Origin: an uncultured Desulfofustis sp.
GTDB lineage: Bacteria > Desulfobacterota > Desulfobulbia > Desulfobulbales > Desulfocapsaceae
Assembly (NCBI GenBank): GCA_964433645.1
Contig: CAYSSK010000004.1
Span: 2,989 to 66,988, forward strand
Direction: 5' to 3'
Length of the DNA stretch: 64,000 nt
Shown here: positions 38,252-50,745 of the stretch, one piece after another
Numbering within the stretch: position 1 is the first letter of the stretch
How the letters are laid out: each line of letters opens with the position of its first letter
The notes under the pieces: generated by a model
What the model saw: the letters and a program-made list of their open reading frames with translations, nothing else
Database searches by the model: none
Told to the model about the DNA's origin: nothing
Program-made: the position numbers and the translations under genes

Positions 38252-38267
38252 CGGTGCGAAAGTTGCA
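38252..38267 (+). promoter_or_regulatory. Weak candidate sigma54 -24/-12 element (cGGtgCG-aaag-TTGCA)
   Basis: The GG and GC dinucleotides are at the canonical 12-nt register and the -12 TTGCA is perfect. The -24 box is poor. It lies about 130 nt upstream of the kinase ORF. Confidence 0.25.
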
Positions 38268-38302
38268 TAAAAAGGGCAGAAAGGGGAACCGATATCCGCC
38301 TG

Positions 38303-38316
38303 CCACAATTGTGTGG
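38303..38316. promoter_or_regulatory. Palindromic operator-like site CCACA-ATTG-TGTGG (site A)
   Basis: Perfect 5+5 inverted repeat with a 4-nt spacer in the leader of the kinase operon. The same motif recurs at 43128, 43149, 49046 and 49089. Confidence 0.5.
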
Positions 38317-38399: not shown

Positions 38400-40445
38400 A
38401 TGTCCCCGGCAAGGATACAGCGGGCTGCTCACGGCAACCAGGTTATGATGCGCCGCACCAAGGTGCTGCGGGCCATCAACCGTTTGAGCAACACCGATCT
38501 GACCAATCTGAGCCGCAGCGAAATATTGACCCGCTGCGGCGAGATCATGCTGCTCAACAGCGAGTTCTGCGGCGGCTGGGTCGGACGATACGATGCCGAG
38601 GAAAAACAATTGGTGCCGCTCGTCTTCTTTCTGCCGCTGCTGCGACCGGACGGCAGCAGGGAGTTGTTCCGCAAACAGGTGCTGCTCGAAGAACCGATCG
38701 TTGCGCCGGCCCGGCAAGCCATCGAAAAACGCCGGCGGATCATCCTCAAAAACATCGATCCGCCGCTGCATATTCCGCTGCTGCCCGGTGAAATCTCGTT
38801 TCACTCGGCCGGTTGCTGGCCGCTGGCCCACCTCGATCAGGTGTATGGGACCATTACCGTCTATTCATCCGAGCACAACGGCTTCCCGAAATCGGAACTC
38901 GATTTCCTCGACGGCACCGTCATCGATCTGTCCCTGGCCCTCTACGCCCACAATGTTTCCCTGCTGCTCCAGTACGAGCGTGATTTCAGCACCGAGATCA
39001 TCGATTCCATCCAGGCCTTGATGGTCTCGGTCACGCCCTGCGGCAAGATCCTGCGATTTAATACCGAAGCCGAGAGAATCAGCGGCTATCGCCAGCAGGA
39101 GGTGCTCGACCGCTACTGGGTCGACGTGCTTCTGTCTCCGGAAACCCGGATTCATTATCAAAATCTGTTTTCCGAGCTGCTGAAAAGCGACCGCCGCAAT
39201 CTCAGTTTTCGGGCGCCGCTGCTGACCAGGGACGGAACCCTGCGCACCATCGACTGGCACAGTTCGATCAAACCCGACATCGACCGGGGGACCGTCGGCA
39301 TGGTCCTCTTCGGCCTGGATATCACCGACCGGCTGGCGGCCGACCGCCTCTACGACAGTACCGTCGCCAAGTGGAAAAACATTTTTACCACCATTCAGGA
39401 CCCGGCTCTGATCGTCAGCCGCGACGGCGTCATTCTCGACGCCAACCATGCCACCTTGTCCGCCTCCCGCAAGAGCCGCGAAGAGGTTATCGGCCAATCG
39501 GTCTGCGTTATCCTGCACGGCGGCCGCACACGCGAAAGCGTCTGCCCGCTGGAGACAATTGTTAAAAGCGGCAAGAGCCGCATTCTGCATACCGAACTCA
39601 ACGGCCTGCACGGCGACTATCTGCTCACCATCAGTCCGTGCCCGAACACCTCGGTCAACGAAAAGATGACCCTGCTCGTCGCCCGCGACATGACCGAGGA
39701 AGAGCGCCATAAGGCAGAGGCGATCAGGGCGGCGCAACTCGCCTCCCTTGGCGAACTGGCCGCCGGCGTCGCCCACGAAATCAACAACCCGATCAACGGC
39801 ATCCTCAACTATGCCCAGATGCTGCGCGATCTCTCCCTGGATGGCCAAGGCGAACAGATAGCCGGCCGAATCATCGATCAGAGCAAACGAATCGCCGGTA
39901 TCGTCAAGAATCTGCTCGATTTCTCCCGGCCAAAAGTCGAGGAGCCGGAGCCGGTCAACTGCCGGGACCTGCTGCACGACTGCATCGAGTTGGTCAAGCA
40001 CCAGCTGCAAAAAGATGATATCCGCCTTGCATTCGAATTCGACATCCCGCTGCCGCTGATCTATTGCAACGCATCCCAGGTGCAGCAGGTGTTTCTCAAC
40101 ATCATCAGCAACAGCAGATACGCCCTTAACCAACGATACGGCACAAAACACCAGAACAAGAAAATCATCTTCAAGGGAACGATGACTCACCATGGCCGGA
40201 CGCCCTACGTCCGAACAACCATCACGGATTTCGGCTCCGGTATCGAACACCGGCTGATCGATCGGGTCCTTGAACCGTTTTTCTCAACCAAACCGGATGG
40301 CCAGGGCACCGGCCTCGGCCTGAGCATCAGCTACGGACTGATCAGGGACAACGGCGGTTATCTGCACATCAAGAGCCGCTACGGCTCGCACACGTCGATT
40401 CAGGTCGATCTGCCGGTGGTTGCCGGCGAAGGAGGAACGCTATGA
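38400..40445 (+). CDS. Cytoplasmic sensor histidine kinase (GAF-like + PAS + PAS + HisKA + HATPase_c)
   Basis: 681 aa with no obvious TM segment. H-box ELAAGVAHEINNPINGI, N-box FLNIISNSRYAL, G-boxes DFGSGI and GTGLGLSISYGLI. The start could be 38448 (MMRR). Confidence 0.85.
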   Translation: MSPARIQRAAHGNQVMMRRTKVLRAINRLSNTDLTNLSRSEILTRCGEIMLLNSEFCGGWVGRYDAEEKQLVPLVFFLPLLRPDGSRELFRKQVLLEEPIVAPARQAIEKRRRIILKNIDPPLHIPLLPGEISFHSAGCWPLAHLDQVYGTITVYSSEHNGFPKSELDFLDGTVIDLSLALYAHNVSLLLQYERDFSTEIIDSIQALMVSVTPCGKILRFNTEAERISGYRQQEVLDRYWVDVLLSPETRIHYQNLFSELLKSDRRNLSFRAPLLTRDGTLRTIDWHSSIKPDIDRGTVGMVLFGLDITDRLAADRLYDSTVAKWKNIFTTIQDPALIVSRDGVILDANHATLSASRKSREEVIGQSVCVILHGGRTRESVCPLETIVKSGKSRILHTELNGLHGDYLLTISPCPNTSVNEKMTLLVARDMTEEERHKAEAIRAAQLASLGELAAGVAHEINNPINGILNYAQMLRDLSLDGQGEQIAGRIIDQSKRIAGIVKNLLDFSRPKVEEPEPVNCRDLLHDCIELVKHQLQKDDIRLAFEFDIPLPLIYCNASQVQQVFLNIISNSRYALNQRYGTKHQNKKIIFKGTMTHHGRTPYVRTTITDFGSGIEHRLIDRVLEPFFSTKPDGQGTGLGLSISYGLIRDNGGYLHIKSRYGSHTSIQVDLPVVAGEGGTL

Positions 40446-41185
40446 TACGTTACCATCGAAACACCGTTCTGGTCGGGCTCGTCCTCGGCGTTTACACACT
40501 TTTACTGGTAACCCCCGCCTACCTTGTCCGGGGAAGCGGTGATCTCCCGGAAAACACCCTGATCGGTCCCGCCGCCGCGACGATAGCCCTGTTCTGCGCG
40601 ACGCTGCTCGCGCTGCTGTCGATCATCTCCTCGCTGCGCAAGCGGATCGAGACCGTCCAGGCAGAGTTGAGCCGACGGGAGGCGGAGCTCTCCGACATCC
40701 GCTTCAACCTGGAAAAGACCATCGAGAAACGCACGTTTGAAATCTCCGTGGTCAACGCCTCGCTCAACAGGGAGATTGCCGAGAGGCTGCAGGCCGAAAC
40801 GCGGAGCAAGGAATTGCAGAAACAAATGGAGTTGATTCTCAATTCGGCCGGCGAGGGTATTTTCGGCCTTGATACCGACGGCAAGCTGACTTTCGTCAAT
40901 ACCGCCGCCGCGCTGATGCTCGGCTGGCAGCGGAAAGAAATGATCGGCAGGAACCATCATGAACTGGTCCACCACAGCCATGCCGACGGCAGTCCGCATG
41001 ATCCGGAAGAATGTCCGATCCGCCAGGCATTTCAGGACGGCATCGTCCATTTCAGTTCCGATGACGTGTTCTGGACCAAGGACGGCACCTGTTTTCCGGT
41101 CGAATATGTCAGTACGCCGATCATCGAGCATTCGATGATCAAAGGGGCCGTGGTCGTTTTCCGCGACCAGAGCACCTTCTCTTGA
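40442..41185 (+). CDS. Membrane-anchored PAS-domain protein without output domain
   Basis: 247 aa. It has two N-terminal TM segments (VLVGLVLGVYTLLLV; AATIALFCATLLALLSIISSL), a coiled coil and one PAS domain (ILNSAGEGIFGLDTDGKLTFVNTAAALMLGW...). Its start overlaps the kinase stop (ATGA). Confidence 0.75.
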   Translation: MIRYHRNTVLVGLVLGVYTLLLVTPAYLVRGSGDLPENTLIGPAAATIALFCATLLALLSIISSLRKRIETVQAELSRREAELSDIRFNLEKTIEKRTFEISVVNASLNREIAERLQAETRSKELQKQMELILNSAGEGIFGLDTDGKLTFVNTAAALMLGWQRKEMIGRNHHELVHHSHADGSPHDPEECPIRQAFQDGIVHFSSDDVFWTKDGTCFPVEYVSTPIIEHSMIKGAVVVFRDQSTFS

Positions 41186-41255: not shown

Positions 41256-43091
41256 ATGACGGAAAAACACGACGGAACGGGAGCGATTCTGGTGGTCGAT
41301 GATGAGGCCAGCCTCCGGGAGACCTTTCATTTCTTTCTGTCCCGGGAAGGATACGACCCGGTCCTGACCGCGGCCGACTTCGACCAGGCCTTTGCGACAC
41401 TCTCTTCCACGCCGGTCGACCTGGTTATCTCCGATATCGTGCTGCGTGACGCATCCGGCATCGAACTCCTGAAGAAGGCGCGGCAAAACGGCATCGACAG
41501 CCCCTTTATCATCATCACCGGTTACCCGGACGTCGACACCGCCGCCGAGGCCGTACGCTACGGCGCCTTCGACTATATCGTCAAGCCCGTCGACAAGGAT
41601 GCGCTGCTGCGTTCGGTGCGGCTCGTCCTTCGACAGCGCCACCTGGAGCGATTGAAGGTCCGGGCGGAAGAGGAGCGAGAGCGCTACCGGCTGCTGCTCG
41701 ACACGGTTTTCAGAAGCGTCGCCGATGCCATCGTCATCGTCGATGACCAACTGAATATCATCAACCTCAACGCCGCCGCTCGCCAACTGTTTGCCGACCT
41801 GCTGCCCGGCTTCGAGGAAGGAGCGAACCTCAATTCCTCCATCCGCTCCAGTGAATTTTCGACACTGCGCACCGACCTGCTGCGTGTCCTGCAGACCGGT
41901 GAGGACGTCGTCGAACATCGTTTCGAATGCAACACCATCGACAACAAACCGAAAATCTTGAGCATCTGCACGTCACCGTTTGCCGAGGGCGGGGCGCAGC
42001 ATCATGGCGCCGTCATCGTCATTCGTGACATGTCCGTCTGCGGCGAGCAGCAGCGCAGCCGCCGGAGCAGCTTCCACCGGTTCCTCGGCAGCAGCGATGT
42101 GATGCAGGCAGTCTACACGATGATCGAAAACGTCGGCCGGGTCGACACCACGGTCCTGATCACCGGCGAATCGGGAACCGGCAAGGAACTGGCGGCCGAA
42201 GCCCTGCACCTTGAATCCAGCCGGCGCACCATGCCGCTGATCAAGGTGGACTGCACGGCCATCCCGGAAAATCTGCTGGAAAGCGAACTGTTCGGCCACA
42301 AAAAAGGCTCGTTCACCGGAGCCGACAAGGACCGGCGCGGCCTGATCATGCAGGCCGACGGCGGCACCTTGTTTCTCGATGAGATCGGCGAGATCTCGGC
42401 GATGACCCAGCTCCGTCTGCTGCGCTTTCTGCAGGAACGGACCTTCTACCCGGTGGGCAGCGACACGCCGATGACCGTCGACACCAGGGTGATTACCGCA
42501 ACCAACGTGGATCTGCGGGAAAAGGTGCAGCAGGGAACCTTTCGTGAAGACCTCTACTTCCGCCTTCGCGTTATCGATATCCACCTGCCGCCGCTGCGGA
42601 AACGAAACGGCGACATTTTGTTGCTGGCCGGCCATTTCGTCAAGAAATTCTCGGAAAAGCTGCATAAACCGATCAACGGCCTGTCCGATAACGCCTTCAA
42701 AGTGTTGACCAGCCATCACTGGCCGGGCAACGTCCGCGAACTGGAACACCTGATCGAACGGGCGGTGGTCCTCTGCCAGGGCGTCACCATCACCATCAAG
42801 GACCTGCCGCAGGACCTTGCGGAACCGGATGATCACAGCGACATGACACCCTCTTTTGATACAACGCCCCGTTTTGACACGGCAACCCGTTTGACAAAGC
42901 ATGAGGCCCCGCCAACGGACGATCAGGCCGCCGACAAACTCGGTTCAGCCGCCCTGCGGATCCTCGGCACGCTCAACAAGTGCGGCGGCAACAAGGCCAA
43001 GGCCGCCCGGCTGCTCGGCATCGACCGTTCGACACTGTATCGCAAGATCAAGGAATACGATATCGATCTCTCGACATTCTCCCTCGAATAA
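41256..43091 (+). CDS. Sigma54-dependent response regulator (REC-PAS-AAA+-Fis HTH; NtrC family)
   Basis: REC domain (ILVVDDE...DLVISDIVL), PAS, AAA+ domain with GESGTGKE, the GAFTGA-type loop GSFTGA, ESELFGH and an R-finger region, and a C-terminal HTH AARLLGIDRSTLYRKIKEY. Confidence 0.9.
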   Translation: MTEKHDGTGAILVVDDEASLRETFHFFLSREGYDPVLTAADFDQAFATLSSTPVDLVISDIVLRDASGIELLKKARQNGIDSPFIIITGYPDVDTAAEAVRYGAFDYIVKPVDKDALLRSVRLVLRQRHLERLKVRAEEERERYRLLLDTVFRSVADAIVIVDDQLNIINLNAAARQLFADLLPGFEEGANLNSSIRSSEFSTLRTDLLRVLQTGEDVVEHRFECNTIDNKPKILSICTSPFAEGGAQHHGAVIVIRDMSVCGEQQRSRRSSFHRFLGSSDVMQAVYTMIENVGRVDTTVLITGESGTGKELAAEALHLESSRRTMPLIKVDCTAIPENLLESELFGHKKGSFTGADKDRRGLIMQADGGTLFLDEIGEISAMTQLRLLRFLQERTFYPVGSDTPMTVDTRVITATNVDLREKVQQGTFREDLYFRLRVIDIHLPPLRKRNGDILLLAGHFVKKFSEKLHKPINGLSDNAFKVLTSHHWPGNVRELEHLIERAVVLCQGVTITIKDLPQDLAEPDDHSDMTPSFDTTPRFDTATRLTKHEAPPTDDQAADKLGSAALRILGTLNKCGGNKAKAARLLGIDRSTLYRKIKEYDIDLSTFSLE

Positions 43092-43113: not shown

Positions 43114-43162
43114 CAACACTTCTGTTGCCACACTTCTGTGGTTTCCTGCCACACAAGTGTGG
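43114..43162. promoter_or_regulatory. Cluster of three 14-bp palindromes: CAACA-CTTC-TGTTG, CCACA-CTTC-TGTGG, CCACA-CAAG-TGTGG
   Basis: Sites at 43114-43127, 43128-43141 and 43149-43162. The last two are perfect matches to the motif at 38303, with centres 21 bp apart. The cluster lies 23 nt after the activator stop codon. Confidence 0.55.
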
Positions 43163-43498: not shown

Positions 43499-43514
43499 CG
43501 GCATCCAATATGCA
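43499..43514 (+). promoter_or_regulatory. Candidate sigma54 -24/-12 promoter (cGGCAT-ccaat-ATGCA)
   Basis: GG and GC are in the canonical register. The sequence closely resembles the element at 49216 (TGGCAT-tattg-GTGCA). It lies 56 nt upstream of ATG 43570. Confidence 0.35.
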
Positions 43515-43569: not shown

Positions 43570-44484
43570 ATGCCACAGGCTCCACCCCTGCCTGACGACC
43601 AGAACCGGTGGTCGGCTCTGCTGCGGGACGAAACATGGTGCACCCACTATCTCTTCCTGCTTCGCTGGCCGCAGGATTTCATCTGTCCCGCCTGCGGCCG
43701 CAGCGGCGGCCGCAGGCCGCCGGCAACACGGATTACCTGCCGGAATTGCGGCAAAACCACATCAATTACCACCGGCACCCTGTTGCACGGCACCAAGAAG
43801 CCGCTTTCCTTCTGGCTCCAGGCCTTCTGGTGGCTCAGCTCGCTGCCGCAGCAGCTGACCGGTAAGACGCTGCAGCGACATATGGGCCTGAAGAGCTACC
43901 AAACGGCCTGGAGCTGGCTGAAGACCCTGAGGCGAGCGATGAAGAATGCAGACCGACAGCGGTGTTCGGGGACGATCGAACTGGACTGCGGCTTTGTCGA
44001 TTTCGGCAGTGACGAAGCACACGGGCGCTACCTGCTGGCCGCAATCGAGGTGGAGCCGAAACACCGGCTGCCCGGCCGACTCCACTTGGCCCACTGCGCG
44101 ATCCCGACAGAATCGCTGCTTGTCGCGTTCATTGAAAACACCACCGATCCCGGCAGCACCATCCTGGCCCCCGACCGGCGGCTCTTTTGTTTACAGAACC
44201 GGCCGGATCGTCTCTATCTCGTCGAAACCGGCTGCAACGACCAGGAACGTGCCCGAGAAGCGATCAACCGCTGTTGCACGGGCTTTCGTGAGCAGCAGGG
44301 TCCGAAGTGTTCGCCGGCCCGTCTCCAGGAACATCTCGACGAGTTCTGCTTCAGAAATAACAGCGCTCTGCTGGCCGACCGACGCCTGATATTCGACCGC
44401 CTCATCGAGGCCATGCTGCTGCACAATGGCCGCAACCGCCGACCGAGAATCGGCGAGCCGCACCCTGCCGGAGGTCTGCCATGA
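43570..44484 (+). CDS. IS1595-family transposase-like protein (zinc-ribbon + ISXO2-like domain), divergent
   Basis: The N-terminus reads CTHYLFLLRWPQDFICPACG...CRNCGKTTSITTGTLLHGTKKPLSFWLQAFWWL...YQTAWSWLKTLRRAM. The tail reads RLQEHLDEFCFRNN. These follow the IS1595 transposase pattern (YL...RWP.gf.CP.CG / GT.f..tk.PL..W / LQ.YLdEF.FR.N). The stop overlaps the ftsH start. Confidence 0.6.
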   Translation: MPQAPPLPDDQNRWSALLRDETWCTHYLFLLRWPQDFICPACGRSGGRRPPATRITCRNCGKTTSITTGTLLHGTKKPLSFWLQAFWWLSSLPQQLTGKTLQRHMGLKSYQTAWSWLKTLRRAMKNADRQRCSGTIELDCGFVDFGSDEAHGRYLLAAIEVEPKHRLPGRLHLAHCAIPTESLLVAFIENTTDPGSTILAPDRRLFCLQNRPDRLYLVETGCNDQERAREAINRCCTGFREQQGPKCSPARLQEHLDEFCFRNNSALLADRRLIFDRLIEAMLLHNGRNRRPRIGEPHPAGGLP

Positions 44485-46298
44485 ATATTCCGGTACGCGT
44501 TCTGCTGGCTCTGATCCTGACAGCTATTCTTATTTTTATCGGTTTCAATATCTATCATATCAGCACCCGCCTGCCGGAACGCTCCTACAGCGCCTTTCTC
44601 GACGACCTGGAACGGGGTGAAATCAACGAAGTAACCATCAAGGACGGGGTGATCACCGGCACCGATCGGCAGCAACGTCAATTCACCACCTATTCGCCCG
44701 ATATCTCCTCGCTGATGCCCCTGCTGCGCCGACACCAGGTGGACATAACCACTAAAGCGGCATCCCGGGGCAGCGCCTTCATCAGGGAGCTGTTGCTGGT
44801 GCTGCTCATTCTCGGCGGTTGGATGATTCTGAGCCGCAAGCGAAACAACCAGTCATTGCAGTTTGCCCGCAACAAAACCTACCAGCGGAATCTCAGCAAC
44901 CCGACTCGGGTCTCGTTCGATGATGTGGCCGGGATCTCCGAGGCCCGGGAGGAACTCAAAGAGATCACCGCTTTTCTCAAAGAGCCGGAAAAATTCGGCG
45001 CCCTTGGCGGCCGTATCCCGAAGGGCGTGCTGCTCCAGGGGCCGCCGGGAACCGGCAAGACGTTGTTGGCCAAAGCCATTGCCGGCGAGGCCTCGGTACC
45101 CTTTTATTCCCTCGGCGGTTCCGATTTCGTCGAAATGTTCGCCGGGCTCGGCGCCTCCCGGGTTCGCGATCTGTTCGCCGAAGCCAAAAAGAATGCCCCG
45201 TGCATCATTTTCATCGACGAAATCGACGCCATCGGCGGCAGGCGAGCCGGCCAATCCCGGGGCGGGTCCAACGACGAACGGGAGCAGACCTTAAACGCGC
45301 TGCTCGTCGAGATGGACGGCTTCACCTCCCATGAGACGGTGATCGTCGTCGCCGCCACCAACCGTCCCGATATTCTCGATTCGGCCCTGCTCCGGCCGGG
45401 GCGATTCGATCGACGCATCACTCTGACCCTGCCCGACATCCGGGGACGAGAAAAGATCCTCGCGGTTCACAGCCGCAAGGTCGCCGTCGGCGGCACTGTC
45501 GATTTTGCCGCGGTGGCCAAGGGAACACCGGGTTTCAGCGGGGCGGAAATCGCCAATCTGGTCAACGAGGCGGCTCTGCTTGCCGCGCGCAAGGGAAAGT
45601 CGCTGATCGACCTGAGCGATTTCGAAGAGGCCAAGGACAAGATCATCATGGGGCTGGAGCGGAAGAGCGCTGTGATCAGCGAAAAGGCCCGGCGACTCAC
45701 GGCCTATCATGAAGCCGGTCACGCGGTCCTTGCCGCCCTGCTACCAGAGACCGATCCGTTGCACAAAATCACCATTATCCCGCGCGGCCAGGCACTTGGC
45801 CTGACCCAGCAACTGCCGTTCGACGAGCACCTCACCTATTCCCGGGAATACCTGATCAACAAGATCAAGATCCTGCTCGGCGGCCGGCTGGCAGAAGAGA
45901 TCATTTTCGGCACCCTGACCACCGGCGCGAGCAACGACCTCCAGTCGATCAGCCGGATCGCCTATCGCCTGGTCTGCACCTTCGGCATGAGCAGCCATAT
46001 CGGCCCGCTGGCCTGCAGCGACCTGGCCGACCAGATAACCGGCGACCCGGGCGACATCAACTGGCAGCGTAGCGAGGAGACCCGGCGGGAGATCGATATG
46101 GAAATCAGAAATATCATCCTCTCCTGCTACCAGAGCGCCAAGGAGGTGCTCAACGACAACAGCGATTTCCTGCATATGCTCGCCGAAGCATTGCTGGTCA
46201 ATGAAACACTGGACAGCGAAGAGGTGGACATCATCCACCGCTGCTACCTCAATGAGCATGAGCAACATCACAAGAAATGGGACATCGTGCCCAGCTAG
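44481..46298 (+). CDS. ftsH: ATP-dependent zinc metalloprotease FtsH
   Basis: 605 aa with two N-terminal TM segments, Walker A GPPGTGKT, Walker [10 protein letters not shown], the [23 protein letters not shown], and the zinc motif HEAGH. Confidence 0.95.
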
Positions 46299-46311
46299 CG
46301 AGGAGTCTGCC

Positions 46312-46773
46312 ATGAATATCCGTCACCAGCCTGTTTCCCGGGGTATGCTCCCGCTGCTCGGCCTGGTCTTTGTTCTGACCACCGCCGGCAGGAGCAGTGC
46401 CGCAGAGCCACCCGACTATCTGGATATCGACGTGCTCAGCGACCGTTACGAAGAGGTGGCCTTCGACCATGAACTGCATGCCGACTACGCGGCATGCAGC
46501 GAATGCCATCATCACACCACCGGCCAAGCCCCGTCCGACCCGGTCTGCGCGACCTGTCACCAGGCCGGTGAAGAAGCTGAGACGGTATCATGCGCAACCT
46601 GCCATCCGGCACAACCGTTTTCCGAAGAGCTGATCGAGCAGAAAGCGCATTCCACCCGCTATCACCTCGACATCGTCGGGCTGCAGGGGGCCTACCATCT
46701 GAACTGCCTCACCTGCCACGAAGCGATCGGCGGCCCGACCGGCTGCCTTGATTGTCATCAAAGTAAACCGTGA
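46312..46773 (+). CDS. Periplasmic multihaem cytochrome c (c3-family-like, five CXXCH)
   Basis: Start at MNIRHQ, followed by a signal peptide. The c3-like FDHELH motif is present. Haem motifs are CSECH, CATCH, CATCH, CLTCH and CLDCH. Confidence 0.85.
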   Translation: MNIRHQPVSRGMLPLLGLVFVLTTAGRSSAAEPPDYLDIDVLSDRYEEVAFDHELHADYAACSECHHHTTGQAPSDPVCATCHQAGEEAETVSCATCHPAQPFSEELIEQKAHSTRYHLDIVGLQGAYHLNCLTCHEAIGGPTGCLDCHQSKP

Positions 46774-46793
46774 ACCTGGGGGAGGAACCTGTC

Positions 46794-47744
46794 ATGAACG
46801 GTCCGTTGTCCCGTCGAAACTTTCTGAGAACCGGCCTAGCCGCGTTTTCTGCAACGCTGCTCACTACTCGCGCCGACAAGGCCGCCGCCCGCGAATTCGA
46901 AGGTTATCGGGAGAGCAAGGGGGTCCTGGTCGATTTGACCAGGTGCATCGGCTGCCGCAGTTGCGAAGCGGCCTGCAACAAAGAACAGGGATTGCCGCCG
47001 CCGGAAACCGGCTTTGACGATCCAGCCGTTTTTCAACTGGACCAGCACGGCCAGCCGCGGCGCCCGGACGATCGGGCCTATACCGTGGTCAACCGCTACC
47101 AAACGGAGCTGGCCGACCATCCGCTGTTTCGCAAGATCCAGTGCAATCACTGTCTGGAACCGGCCTGTCTGACCGCCTGTTTCGTCAACGCCTATACCAA
47201 GACACCGGAAGGCGCCGTGATCTACGATGCCGATGTCTGCGTCGGCTGCCGCACCTGTATGATCGCCTGTCCGTTTTCGATCCCGGCCTTCGACTATTCG
47301 AGCCCTTTCGAGCCGCGCATCATGAAGTGCATCTTCTGTTACGACACCCGCCTGGTCAACGGTCAGCCGCCGGCCTGCGTCGAGGCCTGCCCGACCGAGG
47401 CACTGACCTTTGGCGAACGGGAAACACTGGTGCGCATCGGGCGCAAACGGATCCGCGAACGTCCCGGCCGCTATGTCGATCATATCTACGGCGAGCACGA
47501 GGCGGGCGGCACCGCCTGGCTCTACCTGTCGGGGGTGCCGCACCGCGAAGTCGGTTTCGACATGGACGTGCCGAAACAGCCGATTCTCACCTACGTCAAG
47601 GATTTTCTGGCCATCGTGCCGATGGTGTTGACCATCTGGCCGGCACTGTTTGCCGGCTTTTATCTGCTGGCCGGCCGCGGACACAAAACGATCGATGAAC
47701 CCCACGCAGCCCAGGAGGACAGTCATGAAAGCACTGGTCAATGA
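46794..47744 (+). CDS. Tat-exported 4Fe-4S ferredoxin-type subunit (HybA/DmsB/NrfC-like) with C-terminal anchor
   Basis: Twin-arginine signal SRRNFLRTGLAAF. Cluster motifs are CIGCRSCEAAC, CNHCLEPACLTAC, CVGCRTCMIACP and CIFCYD...PACVEACP. ATG 46794 has GGGGGAGGA upstream. Confidence 0.85.
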   Translation: MNGPLSRRNFLRTGLAAFSATLLTTRADKAAAREFEGYRESKGVLVDLTRCIGCRSCEAACNKEQGLPPPETGFDDPAVFQLDQHGQPRRPDDRAYTVVNRYQTELADHPLFRKIQCNHCLEPACLTACFVNAYTKTPEGAVIYDADVCVGCRTCMIACPFSIPAFDYSSPFEPRIMKCIFCYDTRLVNGQPPACVEACPTEALTFGERETLVRIGRKRIRERPGRYVDHIYGEHEAGGTAWLYLSGVPHREVGFDMDVPKQPILTYVKDFLAIVPMVLTIWPALFAGFYLLAGRGHKTIDEPHAAQEDSHESTGQ

Positions 47745-48975
47745 GGCGCCCGGCCTGCCGATCGACCGCAGCCGCAAAGATCACGCATCATCTTGGAATT
47801 TCAAAGAAAAGATATTGCTCGGGCTGTCGGTCCGCGATTATCTGGCCCAGATGGTGCGCAATCCTGTCAACTGGGTCCTGGTCGCCATCCTGTTGCTCGG
47901 CATCCCGCTGCTCGGTCAGCGCTACCTGTTCGGCCTGGCCAGCGTCACCCACGGTTCGCAGGATTATCCCTGGGGGCTGCTCCTCGGTTTCGGCCTGTTC
48001 GCCATGGTACCGCTGTCGGCGTCCGGGTTTTTGCTGAGCACCGCCGTGGAAATCTTCCACCGTAAGGACTTCCTGCCGATCGAACGGCTGGCCCTGCTCA
48101 ACGGCCTGCTCGGCTACTTCTTCGCCGTCGTCTACCTGCTCGTCGATCTCGGGATGCCGTGGCGGCTGACTTACCCGATGATCGTCTCCTTCGGCCCGGC
48201 CGCCGTGCTCTTCCTCGTCGCTTGGCACGTGGCCACCTATCTCTCCGTCCAGATCGCCGAAATGGTGCCGGCCTTTGCCGAATGGGCCGACTGGCCGGCG
48301 GCCAAACGCTGGATCAAGAGCATCGCCCTGGGGCTGACCATCGCCGGCATCATCCTGTCCACGCTGCACCAAGGTGCGCTCGGGGCGCTGTTCTGCTACG
48401 CCCCGGCAAAAATTCACCCGCTCTGGATCTCGCCCGAATTCCAATGGCTGCATTTTTTCTGCTCGTCCATCTTCGCCGGGCTCTGCATGGTCATCATCGT
48501 CTCGACCCTGCTCAAACATTTCATGACCTGGCGCTGTGACGCCCGCTTTCTCGAGAACCTCGACCGGATCACCATCGGCCTGGCCAAAGGCTCCGCCTAT
48601 GCAATGATCACCTATCTGGTGATCAAACTTGTCGCGATTGCCCACGACCAGGAATGGCAATACCTGATCACCGGCTGGGGAGTCTACTATCTCCTTGAGT
48701 TGGGAATCGGCGTTGTGCTGCCGATGGTGCTGTTCGCCCGCGGCGTCCGCAACCACAATGTGGCGATCCTGCGTTTCGGAGCGGCCATTGCCGTTCTCGG
48801 CATCATCTGGAACCGGCTCAACACCGTTCTGGTCGCCTACAACTGGCGCCAGTACCAGGAACTGCCGACCTGGCAGGAAACCTGGATCGTCTTCACCGTG
48901 CTGGCCTTCTATTTCATCATCTATCGCTTCATCCTCTATCGGTTGCCGGTCGTCTTCAGCTGGAAACAGGTCTGA
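47725..48975 (+). CDS. NrfD/PsrC-family quinone-interacting integral membrane subunit
   Basis: About 416 aa with about 10 TM segments. Its position directly after the FeS subunit (short overlap) is typical of NrfCD/HmcBC/Cbc-type modules. Confidence 0.8.
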   Translation: MKALVNEAPGLPIDRSRKDHASSWNFKEKILLGLSVRDYLAQMVRNPVNWVLVAILLLGIPLLGQRYLFGLASVTHGSQDYPWGLLLGFGLFAMVPLSASGFLLSTAVEIFHRKDFLPIERLALLNGLLGYFFAVVYLLVDLGMPWRLTYPMIVSFGPAAVLFLVAWHVATYLSVQIAEMVPAFAEWADWPAAKRWIKSIALGLTIAGIILSTLHQGALGALFCYAPAKIHPLWISPEFQWLHFFCSSIFAGLCMVIIVSTLLKHFMTWRCDARFLENLDRITIGLAKGSAYAMITYLVIKLVAIAHDQEWQYLITGWGVYYLLELGIGVVLPMVLFARGVRNHNVAILRFGAAIAVLGIIWNRLNTVLVAYNWRQYQELPTWQETWIVFTVLAFYFIIYRFILYRLPVVFSWKQV

Positions 48976-48983
48976 TCGAGCAC

Positions 48984-49020
48984 GCCGGAACCGTAAGACC
49001 TTCGGTTCCGGCGTTTTTTT
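48984..49020 (+). terminator. Rho-independent terminator
   Basis: GCCGGAACCG-(9 nt)-CGGTTCCGGC forms a 10-bp G+C-rich stem, followed by G and T7. It begins 9 nt after the NrfD-like stop. Confidence 0.75.
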
Positions 49021-49045
49021 GCCTTCGTCTATCCAGAACAATACC

Positions 49046-49102
49046 CGACAATTGTGTGGCAGCGGCGCGACACATTGGCCGCCTGACGCCACAGGTCTGT
49101 AG
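49046..49102. promoter_or_regulatory. Two near-perfect copies of the CCACA-N4-TGTGG palindrome (CGACA-ATTG-TGTGG; CCACA-GGTC-TGTAG), a candidate UAS
   Basis: Sites at 49046-49059 and 49089-49102, each matching 9 of 10 motif positions. Their centres are 43 bp apart and lie about 120-165 bp upstream of the -24/-12 element at 49216. Confidence 0.5.
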
Positions 49103-49215
49103 TACTGCGCGACAGCCGCCCCGCCCCATCTTCGGAGACGCTTGCTCAAAGAGAGTTTTTACCCACAATTACAAATAGATACAAACGAACAAACAATGCG
49201 CGCAAAGTCGTTTCC

Positions 49216-49231
49216 TGGCATTATTGGTGCA
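49216..49231 (+). promoter_or_regulatory. Candidate sigma54 -24/-12 promoter (TGGCAT-tattg-GTGCA)
   Basis: It matches TGGCAC-N5-TTGCA in 9 of 11 conserved positions, with GG and GC correctly spaced. It lies 53 nt upstream of ATG 49284. A sigma54 activator gene lies 6 kb upstream. Confidence 0.55.
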
Positions 49232-49283
49232 ATACCAAGAGCAAAGAAGCCAACCATCCACAACCCGCTTACAGGAGGATGCC

Positions 49284-49481
49284 ATGAAAACGATCGTCAC
49301 CACCAACAGCCGGACCGAAACCGATCTGCAGCACGAAGTATCGGGTTTTCTGTTCACCGTGGTCTCGGCCTCGGCCCTGATCATCGGAATCTGGGGAGCT
49401 GCCTGCCTGGTCGCCGGGCTGGTCAGCGGCGGCTTCATGTCTCTGGTCAAAGGATATGTGACCGCCCTCACCGGAATGTAA
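49284..49481 (+). CDS. Small membrane protein (65 aa), paralogue A
   Basis: AGGAGG lies 7 nt upstream of the ATG. It has one strong TM segment (FLFTVVSASALIIGIWGAACLVAGLVSGG) and a conserved tail SLVKGYVTALTGM, shared with the next ORF. Confidence 0.55.
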   Translation: MKTIVTTNSRTETDLQHEVSGFLFTVVSASALIIGIWGAACLVAGLVSGGFMSLVKGYVTALTGM

Positions 49482-49511
49482 CACATTCCCTCATCACTGG
49501 AGGAATAACAG

Positions 49512-49811
49512 ATGAAAACCAGTCCCTCTCGAGTCATGCTCAGCATATCGCTGGGCTTCGGCAGCCTGGTCGGCCTCTGGGCGCTTGCCGCCCTGATCGG
49601 TGGTCTGCGCCAGACCGGCTGGCAGGTGAGCGAACTCCTGCGGCAATACATGGTGGCCACCGGCATGATCCAGCCGTTTCACACCCTGGTCGATTTTTAC
49701 AGCCACATCAAAGGGGTCGAATACCTGATCTGTGTCGCTTTCTTCGTCGCCTTTCCACTTTTTTTCCGCTATGTCAACGAAGAACGCAAAGAGGTACGCA
49801 CGGAGAAATGA
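49512..49811 (+). CDS. Small membrane protein (99 aa), paralogue B with extra C-terminal TM
   Basis: GGAGGA lies upstream. GSLVGLWALAALIGGLRQTG...SELLRQYMVATGM aligns with paralogue A. A second TM segment follows (YLICVAFFVAFPLFF). The 3' end overlaps the convergent HAD gene by about 43 nt. Confidence 0.55.
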   Translation: MKTSPSRVMLSISLGFGSLVGLWALAALIGGLRQTGWQVSELLRQYMVATGMIQPFHTLVDFYSHIKGVEYLICVAFFVAFPLFFRYVNEERKEVRTEK

Positions 49812-50458
49812 TCGCCGTCCAGCAGGGCCGCCTCGACCTGGTCGATCCGCGTGATCACCAGGTCGGCCGCGCTGAAATCATGTCCCTTCGACCAGGCACT
49901 CGGCACGGCAACCACCTGCAACCCGGCACTTTTGGCCGCCCGCACCCCTGATTCGGAATCCTCGAAGGCCAGGCACCGGCCCGGCGGCAGGCCGAGCATC
50001 CGGCAGGCCTGCTGATATATATCCGGGGCCGGCTTTTTCCTGGCAACCATATCACCGCCCACCACCACCTCGAAATGGTGGTCCAGCGCATGCACCTGCA
50101 GGATCTTCCGCAACTCGAGCAGGTGCGATGAAGACGCCACCGCCAGGCGGCAGCGCTCACCGAAACGCTGCAAGACCGTCCGCACCCCCGGCAACAGCGT
50201 GAGGTGCGGAATCATTTCCAGATAGCGCCTCTGCTTGCGATGCACCAGTTCGTCCACATCGATGTTCAGCGATGCCGCGGCAATAAAATCTTCGGCCACC
50301 TTTTCATTGCTGGTACCGACGTAGGCGAGAAACTGCTCCCAGGAAAACGACGGGACACCGTGGTCGGCCAGGGTCTGCCGCCAGGCCTGGTGATGGAGCG
50401 GCTCCGAATCGACCAGCGTGCCGTCCATGTCAAAAATCACTGCCTCGATCATCCCCAT
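49769..50458 (-). CDS. HAD-superfamily hydrolase (beta-phosphoglucomutase/phosphatase-like, subfamily IA)
   Basis: Motif I is VIFDMDGTLVDSE, motif II is VASSS, and motif III/IV is K...FEDSESGVRAAKSAG. Confidence 0.85.
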   Translation of the reverse strand: MGMIEAVIFDMDGTLVDSEPLHHQAWRQTLADHGVPSFSWEQFLAYVGTSNEKVAEDFIAAASLNIDVDELVHRKQRRYLEMIPHLTLLPGVRTVLQRFGERCRLAVASSSHLLELRKILQVHALDHHFEVVVGGDMVARKKPAPDIYQQACRMLGLPPGRCLAFEDSESGVRAAKSAGLQVVAVPSAWSKGHDFSAADLVITRIDQVEAALLDGDHFSVRTSLRSSLT

Positions 50459-50745
50459 TCCTCCTGCTCGTGTAGTTATCTCGGGTCAGCTTTATACCGA
50501 TAAGACAGGTGCCGAAAATCTCAAGCGAACGCCGCACCGCAACGGGCAATCGTCGCTGATCCCCCCCCTGCCTTTGATTGCTGTTGACAGCCGTTTATCA
50601 AACCAATTATTGTTGCGTTTCATTATCCCTTAAGACCGTCTTGAAACATGGCAACCTCCATTTACCATCAAGGCGAACGCAAACACGGTGCCGCTCACCC
50701 GAGGTTACCAGGCGGCCCAAACACGTATCGGCAATGAGGAAGCAC

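Follow-up and report, generated by a model that had tools for sequence, protein, structure and literature searches.

Known systems and the locus

HmcD of the Desulfovibrio Hmc complex, known as DVU_0533, is a protein of 5.8 kDa (PMC10920352) which is described only as a hydrophobic peptide of this complex (PMC10924467), and NhcD is an extra subunit of NhcABCD (PMC8076601). Both are extra small membrane subunits of complexes with an NrfD-like subunit (PMC10924467, PMC8076601). They have been listed as Hmc and Nhc subunits for decades without an assigned function. We describe here a locus in a 64,000-nt stretch of DNA (hereafter the window) from an uncultured Desulfofustis sp. (assembly GCA_964433645.1, contig CAYSSK010000004.1), in which two small open reading frames (ORFs), ORF1 of 65 amino acids (aa; 49284-49481, + strand) and ORF2 of 99 aa (49512-49811, + strand), follow a predicted sigma-54 promoter, and in which ORF2 carries an HmcD module. 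All coordinates are those of the window.

The likeness to hmcD lies in sequence and in position. Residues 53-99 of ORF2 align over the whole length of HmcD (HTLxDFxxHxKGxEYLIxVxFxxxFPxF...), and the ORF2 gene is downstream of hmcB- and hmcC-like genes. The differences are also clear. HmcD has 41-49 aa, whereas ORF2 has an extra N-terminal transmembrane (TM) module; unlike hmcD, ORF2 is preceded by a paralogous 65-aa gene, is cut off from hmcC by a terminator and has its own putative sigma-54 promoter. The cytochrome partner has five haems here, against 16 in HmcA or nine in NhcA, and the Hmc-like module is minimal, without hmcE or hmcF.

The regulatory part resembles NtrC-family sigma-54 promoters, with GG at -24 and GC at -12, palindromes 120-190 nt upstream, an A/T-rich spacer and a response-regulator activator gene nearby. 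In Geobacter sulfurreducens, the cbcBA respiratory operon is dependent on sigma-54 and BccR, which is a similar control of a quinone-linked cytochrome module. Both halves of the locus are of known kinds, a small subunit of HmcD type and a sigma-54 regulon of NtrC type. No earlier description exists of the palindromic motif CNACA-N4-TGTNG, of the membership of the regulon or of its inducing signal, and literature searches gave nothing on the ORF1-ORF2 pair or on the regulon. Here an HmcD module is split from hmcABC, has its own enhancer-dependent promoter and is fused to a module also existing as a separate paralogue; the compact regulon around it also includes a sensor kinase, an activator and an FtsH paralogue.

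We consider it fairly probable that the activator of this cluster, via the sigma-54 promoter, turns on ORF1 and ORF2 as inducible accessory membrane subunits of the Hmc-like complex. ORF1 and ORF2 would form a bicistronic operon transcribed from the enhancer-dependent promoter at 49216-49231, which an NtrC-type response regulator (41256-43091) would activate by binding the palindromes at 49046 and 49089. A second sigma-54-like element and further copies of this palindrome appear before the operon of the FtsH paralogue and the Hmc-like cytochrome c, iron-sulfur (FeS) and NrfD quinone module, so the two units would form one local regulon. ORF2 is predicted to be a two-pass protein, with HmcD as its C-terminal helix and a copy of the ORF1 module as its N-terminal helix. 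The assembly has no HmcD-like sequence other than ORF2, which is sited where hmcD sits in hmcABCD. ORF2 may therefore be an accessory subunit, inducible and membrane-bound, of the Hmc-like complex beside it. It probably pairs with ORF1 via glycine/alanine-rich helices, and ORF1-ORF2 possibly link the complex to the FtsH paralogue.

The predicted sigma-54 promoter

An earlier note, made from the letters of the sequence, had proposed a sigma-54 promoter with paired upstream sites driving two paralogous small membrane proteins, and conservation across the order now strongly supports this proposal. The element TGGCAT-TATTG-GTGCA lies at 49216-49231 on the + strand with GG-N10-GC spacing, the exact -24/-12 register which the note had given, and it fits the sigma-54 consensus TGGCAC-N5-TTGCW. 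The match in the window is not significant alone: TGGCAY-N5-KTGCW occurs twice against 0.36 expected, and 7 of 100 shuffles also reach two. We compared 25 orthologous Desulfobulbales loci, re-oriented and drawn from the sampled families of the order. The consensus cTGGCAY-N5-xTGCAAT (TGGCA-N7-TGC) was present 50-90 nt before the start of the ORF1 homologue in 24 of them. At genus level, the alignment showed the promoter, both palindromes and a CTATCCA box as conserved islands amid diverging DNA. It is this conservation in relatives, not the match in the window, that we regard as decisive support for a promoter, and the transcription start is predicted near 49242. The sole other exact TGGCAY-N5-KTGCW match in the window is at 1829-1844 on the - strand (TGGCATACCAGGTGCA).

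Upstream of the promoter, an intrinsic terminator (48984-49020, + strand) closes the hmcC-like gene, with an 11-bp G+C stem, a 9-nt loop and T7. Its fold has a dG of -24.1 kcal/mol (z -3.7) and none of 200 shuffles was equally stable, which agrees with the strong terminator noted earlier at this place. The stem is retained in three same-genus genomes, with base changes on both arms. The consensus terminator scan accepts only loops of 3-8 nt, and it missed this terminator because the 9-nt loop exceeds the limit. The terminator insulates the ORF1-ORF2 unit from upstream read-through.

Between the palindromes and the promoter there is an A/T-rich spacer, a possible bending or IHF region. The spacer was correctly seen in the earlier note, but its length is about 75 bp (49140-49215; 60.5% A+T against 45% for the window) instead of about 110 bp. 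In many relatives, IHF-like matches are concentrated some 50 nt before the -24 element. Their excess over shuffles is modest (1.58 against 2.05 mismatches) and the best site of the window itself has two mismatches, so an IHF site in the spacer may be suggested only weakly. The first palindrome is preceded, at a distance of about 10 nt, by the CTATCCA box (49029-49035, + strand), which many loci across the family (L001-L012, L015, L025) have in the same register.

We also considered that the -24/-12 match is not a working promoter, and that the ORFs are transcribed by hmcC read-through or from an unrecognised sigma-70 promoter, the palindromes serving another purpose. The element alone is indeed not significant in the window, as said above, but its distance is fixed in 24 of 25 loci while the flanks diverge. 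Read-through is opposed by the strong terminator upstream. On contig C23 of the same genome, a second ORF1-like gene lacks a sigma-54 element and has the sigma-70-like TTGACG-N17-TATGGT in its place, but the scan of 48500-50600 found no sigma-70-like site. The absence of rpoN from the assembly would fit this explanation too, but rpoN is present in relatives. It is very improbable in our judgment.

The gene rpoN was not found in the assembly by the Pfam Sigma54_DBD model, by TIGR02395 or by tblastn with RpoN of a relative. The earlier note had named a genome lacking rpoN as a reason to give up its promoter, and formally this is the state of the assembly, a draft in 185 contigs with 96.7% completeness and 6500 N. 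The most likely cause is an assembly gap, because the assembly encodes 32 full-length sigma-54 activators and nine of the ten relatives tested have rpoN. These nine include four of five same-genus genomes, and the sole exception is a genome of 69% completeness.

Palindromic sites and the activator

The two palindromes that the earlier note had placed at 49046 and 49089 proved to be enriched and conserved. Upstream activator site 1 (CGACA-ATTG-TGTGG, 49046-49059) starts 170 nt, and site 2 (CCACA-GGTC-TGTAG, 49089-49102) 127 nt, upstream of the -24 element. Both distances are within the range of about 100-200 nt usual for such sites. Their starts are 43 bp apart in the window, and both keep their position in relatives. 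The motif CNACANNNNTGTNG (CNACA-N4-TGTNG) matches the window six times, where 0.61 would be expected, and none of 100 shuffles reached six. All six are intergenic and confined to one gene cluster: one in the leader of the kinase gene (38303), three after the activator gene (43114, 43128 and 43149) and the two before ORF1. The group of three (43114-43162) is upstream of the IS1595-like/ftsH/hmc-like operon and is conserved in relatives. It is followed by a second sigma-54-like element, CGGCAT-CCAAT-ATGCA (43499-43514, + strand), 56 nt before the IS1595-like gene, and relatives have CGGCAT or TGGCAT-N5-ATGCA at this place, also downstream of the palindromes.

The palindrome and the gene order were followed in 20 wider loci from relatives, where the window proteins were placed by tblastn. 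These loci hold 55 copies of the palindrome against 5.1 expected, nearly all of them 120-420 nt upstream of sigma-54 elements heading either ORF1-ORF2 or the unit which starts with the IS1595-like gene, ftsH or the cytochrome gene. The motif is not a genome-wide repeat, with 44 matches in the whole genome against about 30 expected, and outside contig C4 the genome-wide scan found no strict palindrome near a sigma-54 element.

The candidate cognate activator is a response regulator of the NtrC family (41256-43091, + strand) with REC, PAS, AAA+ sigma-54 interaction and Fis-type helix-turn-helix domains (Sigma54_activat, HTH_8). Of the 20 wider loci, 14 have its orthologue within the cluster, and in four genomes (G039, G037, G033, G030) this gene directly precedes ORF1. 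We infer that this activator is likely to bind the palindromes, because they persist in loci without the IS1595-like gene and always together with the activator gene. The IS1595-like protein had been tried as the binder and was rejected, as the palindromes occur in loci which lack that gene but have the activator. As far as comparison of sequences can tell, the regulatory interpretation is well supported, and a defined promoter, an operator motif and a regulator are given as handles for experiment, with the HmcC-like protein and FtsH as predicted partners.

The leader of the kinase gene has a perfect palindrome, CCACA-ATTG-TGTGG at 38303-38316, downstream of a sigma-54-like CGGTGC-GAAAG-TTGCA at 38253-38268. 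This arrangement may serve autoregulation of the sensor operon.

ORF1, ORF2 and the HmcD module

Both ORFs exist where the earlier note had read them, each behind a ribosome-binding site (AGGAGG at 49273-49278 for ORF1, GGAGG at 49499-49503 for ORF2). The note had asked for a coding-type substitution pattern in relatives, and within the genus the changes pile up at third codon positions in both: the differences at positions 1, 2 and 3 are 135, 62 and 247 for ORF1 and 78, 38 and 257 for ORF2. It shows that purifying selection acts on both ORFs. The proposed paralogy was confirmed by BLASTP between the two proteins (37% identity over 35 residues, E 4e-5) and by profile-profile comparison of the two families with hhalign (96% probability, E 3.5e-9, ORF2 residues 4-52).

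ORF1 starts with a polar segment, followed by a single TM helix in which small-xxx-small motifs are frequent and by a short helix at the C-terminus that ends in TGM. ORF2 has two predicted TM helices, and the additional helix of the second protein is in line with the earlier description. Its residues 1-52 (49512-49667, + strand) form the ORF1-type module, with TM helix 1 and a short helix ending in ATGM, and its residues 53-99 with the stop codon (49668-49811, + strand) form the HmcD module, with TM helix 2 and a basic tail. AlphaFold2 gave one long helix for ORF1, at low confidence (pLDDT 70), and helices at residues 4-34, 38-49 and 59-90 for ORF2 (pLDDT 66, pTM 0.32). A search of PDB at E <= 10 gave no relative.

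The earlier note could not assign the two proteins to any family. This still holds for ORF1, which matched nothing in Pfam and NCBIfam, but not for ORF2, whose C-terminal half matched the NCBIfam HmcD model NF045712 (E 4.9e-5, 23.2 bits). The same model matched 30 of 31 ORF2 homologues at E <= 0.01, the best at 7.8e-6. Pfam PF28260, precomputed on ORF2 homologues of up to 98% identity, is named DVU_0533. An exhaustive profile search with ORF2 gave 80 representative clusters, including peptides of 41-49 aa which cover only about residues 53-94 of ORF2 and score above the HmcD cut-off. When these HmcD peptides were compared with the ORF2 family by hhalign, residues 53-99 of ORF2 were matched at 99.3% and E 5e-20. 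In a large protein collection ORF2 has 382 homologues, the closest named one being from Desulfofustis limnaeus (85% identity), and all the named ones are of Desulfobulbales type. By these comparisons ORF2 is an ORF1-type module followed by HmcD. It departs from an HmcD of 40-50 aa with a single TM helix, being of 99 aa with two predicted TM helices.

In two proteins from the profile search, P0195 and P0204, an HmcD-like TM helix at the N-terminus is joined to a soluble domain of about 190 aa, which by eye is similar to the glycine-cleavage H protein or to a lipoyl-type domain. These proteins represent another architecture with the HmcD module. ORF2 and a convergent HAD-family phosphatase gene share 43 nt at their 3' ends (49769-49811), leaving no room for a terminator, and a similar overlap is found in same-genus genomes.

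Association with Hmc-like respiratory genes

The genes before the terminator encode a five-haem class III cytochrome c (46309-46773, + strand), an HmcB-like FeS protein (46770-47744, + strand) and an HmcC/NrfD-like membrane protein (about 47650-48975, + strand, start uncertain). Five CXXCH motifs are found in the cytochrome, whose c3-like fold spans about 125 residues, and it matched weakly to the C-terminus of HmcA and to TmcA. The best matches of the other two proteins are HmcB (396 bits, cut-off 420) and HmcC (332 bits, cut-off 550).

Among 41 related genomes, the five-haem cytochrome is present in all 22 which have a strong ORF2 match, and in only two of the 19 without ORF2. The earlier note had suggested looking for the tandem pair next to Cbc/NrfD-like modules or ftsH in other genomes, and this linkage holds in most relatives. 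The order of genes is not constant. It is activator-ORF1-ORF2-FtsH-cytochrome c-FeS-NrfD in G039, G037 and G033, activator-ORF1-ORF2-cytochrome c-FeS-NrfD in G030, and ORF2-cytochrome c-FeS-NrfD in G036. The association of ORF2 with Hmc-like genes persists through these changes.

This co-occurrence also bears on the suggestion that ORF1 and ORF2 are stand-alone envelope-stress effectors like the small Psp proteins, unrelated to their respiratory neighbours. The likeness is that small membrane proteins are made from a dedicated sigma-54 promoter, and unlinked extra copies exist in some genomes (L032, L043, L044). But neither protein matched any Psp family in the family searches, just as the earlier note had seen no similarity, and ORF2 contains the HmcD module. 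The near-perfect co-occurrence with the five-haem cytochrome and the palindrome shared by both units of the regulon do not fit with effectors independent of their neighbours, the genomic partners being respiratory and FtsH genes. The activator is different in architecture too: it has REC and PAS input domains and scored far below the cut-offs of PspF models, and PspF is not known to have such input domains. The Psp analogy of the earlier note is not upheld, and we think this explanation improbable.

The ORF1 family and FtsH

A word-based homologue search found only six close relatives of ORF1, and the others were reached only via six-frame genome searches. These searches showed that, across the order, the ORF2 homologue has an ORF1 homologue just before it. 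A search with the protein of the second ORF1-like gene, on contig C23, brought out a multi-copy family of small proteins in Desulfobulbales, with up to 10 copies per genome, often in tandem arrays. The family has no curated model, and the locus defines it as an unannotated family of small membrane proteins.

Many copies belong to a second, conserved type of cluster, seen in eight relatives (G034, G019, G007, G023, G017, G018, G011, G010) and composed of an activator, a sigma-54 element, one to three tandem ORF1-like genes and a second FtsH paralogue. In the genome studied here, the second ORF1-like gene (C23:4782-4994, 71 aa) directly precedes a further FtsH paralogue (C23:5393-7303). FtsH genes number about 2-6 in genomes with the ORF1 family, against 1-2 in those without it. 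These genomic patterns support a functional link of the ORF1 module to FtsH paralogues, which would suggest that membrane-protein homeostasis in sulfur-cycling bacteria is under a further, unexplored control. The C23 region (to 10459) also has two membrane multihaem cytochromes beside the FtsH paralogue.

The link to FtsH motivates an adaptor hypothesis that makes ORF2 a bridge between FtsH and the Hmc-like complex. The ORF1-type module would primarily partner dedicated FtsH paralogues as adaptor, modulator or substrate, and ORF2 would join FtsH to the Hmc-like complex, directing its conditional assembly, quality control or turnover, rather than being an electron-transfer subunit. Small membrane peptides which steer or inhibit FtsH are known, such as MgtR of Salmonella, SpoVM of Bacillus subtilis and YccA of E. 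coli. Proteins of the ORF1 family are likewise short, single-pass and repeatedly encoded beside FtsH paralogues, a likeness of genomic context only, but neither ORF1 nor ORF2 has sequence similarity to these known FtsH modulators. The eight clusters of the second type, the C23 pair (C23:4782-7303), the FtsH counts and the FtsH paralogue which leads the enzyme genes of the co-regulated operon in the window all point in this direction, while adjacency of genes alone is no proof of contact with FtsH. In G036 and G030, moreover, ORF2 is directly before the cytochrome c-FeS-NrfD genes with no FtsH gene within 14-20 kb, and only one FtsH-type gene was detected in G036. We hold this explanation as possible, though rather unlikely. 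It is compatible with the accessory-subunit explanation, and both could hold together.

Going further, ORF2 could be speculated to be a "Rosetta stone" fusion, in which the ORF1-type helix docks on the FtsH paralogue and the HmcD helix on the HmcC/NrfD-like subunit. The sigma-54 regulon would then build a respiratory complex tethered to a protease, with small membrane adaptors in control of its assembly or turnover. We give this idea only a small chance. If it were true, it would provide the first mechanistic role for HmcD, which has been unexplained since the sequencing of the hmc operon, and the ORF1-family peptides would be general adaptors of FtsH paralogues in Desulfobulbales.

Points weighing against an accessory subunit

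Besides the missing rpoN, several observations weigh against ORF1 and ORF2 as inducible accessory subunits of the Hmc-like complex. The score of ORF2 is below the curated equivalog cut-off of HmcD (23 against 34 bits), and ORF2 is twice as long as HmcD. ORF1-ORF2 stand apart from hmcC, behind a terminator and with a promoter of their own, which is not the canonical hmcABCD layout, and G028 and G026 have the pair away from their Hmc-like genes. The multi-copy ORF1 family is often beside FtsH paralogues with no Hmc genes nearby, and FtsH, not Hmc, may be its main partner. Both structure models, of ORF1 and of ORF2, are of low confidence. In the RNA runs searched, at most 7% of the sampled words matched, and only metagenomic DNA runs carry the sequence of the locus. 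Finally, HmcD itself is described only as a hydrophobic peptide, and the term "HmcD-like subunit" therefore names a partner and not a mechanism.

Other genes of the cluster

The conserved cluster consists of a GAF-PAS kinase, a membrane PAS protein, the REC-PAS-AAA+-HTH activator, the IS1595-like protein, the FtsH paralogue, the five-haem cytochrome c, the FeS protein, the NrfD-like protein, ORF1 and ORF2. The GAF-PAS-PAS histidine kinase (38400-40445, + strand) and the membrane PAS protein (40442-41185, + strand) are presumed to be the sensors feeding the activator. The co-regulated operon begins with the IS1595-like gene (43570-44484, + strand), followed by the FtsH paralogue (44481-46298, + strand), its leading enzyme gene.

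The IS1595-like protein has a zinc ribbon and a partial transposase domain, below the family cut-off. Its gene is syntenic between the activator gene and ftsH across genera, with 30-80% identity, and its stop codon overlaps the start of ftsH. The gene looks domesticated rather than mobile.

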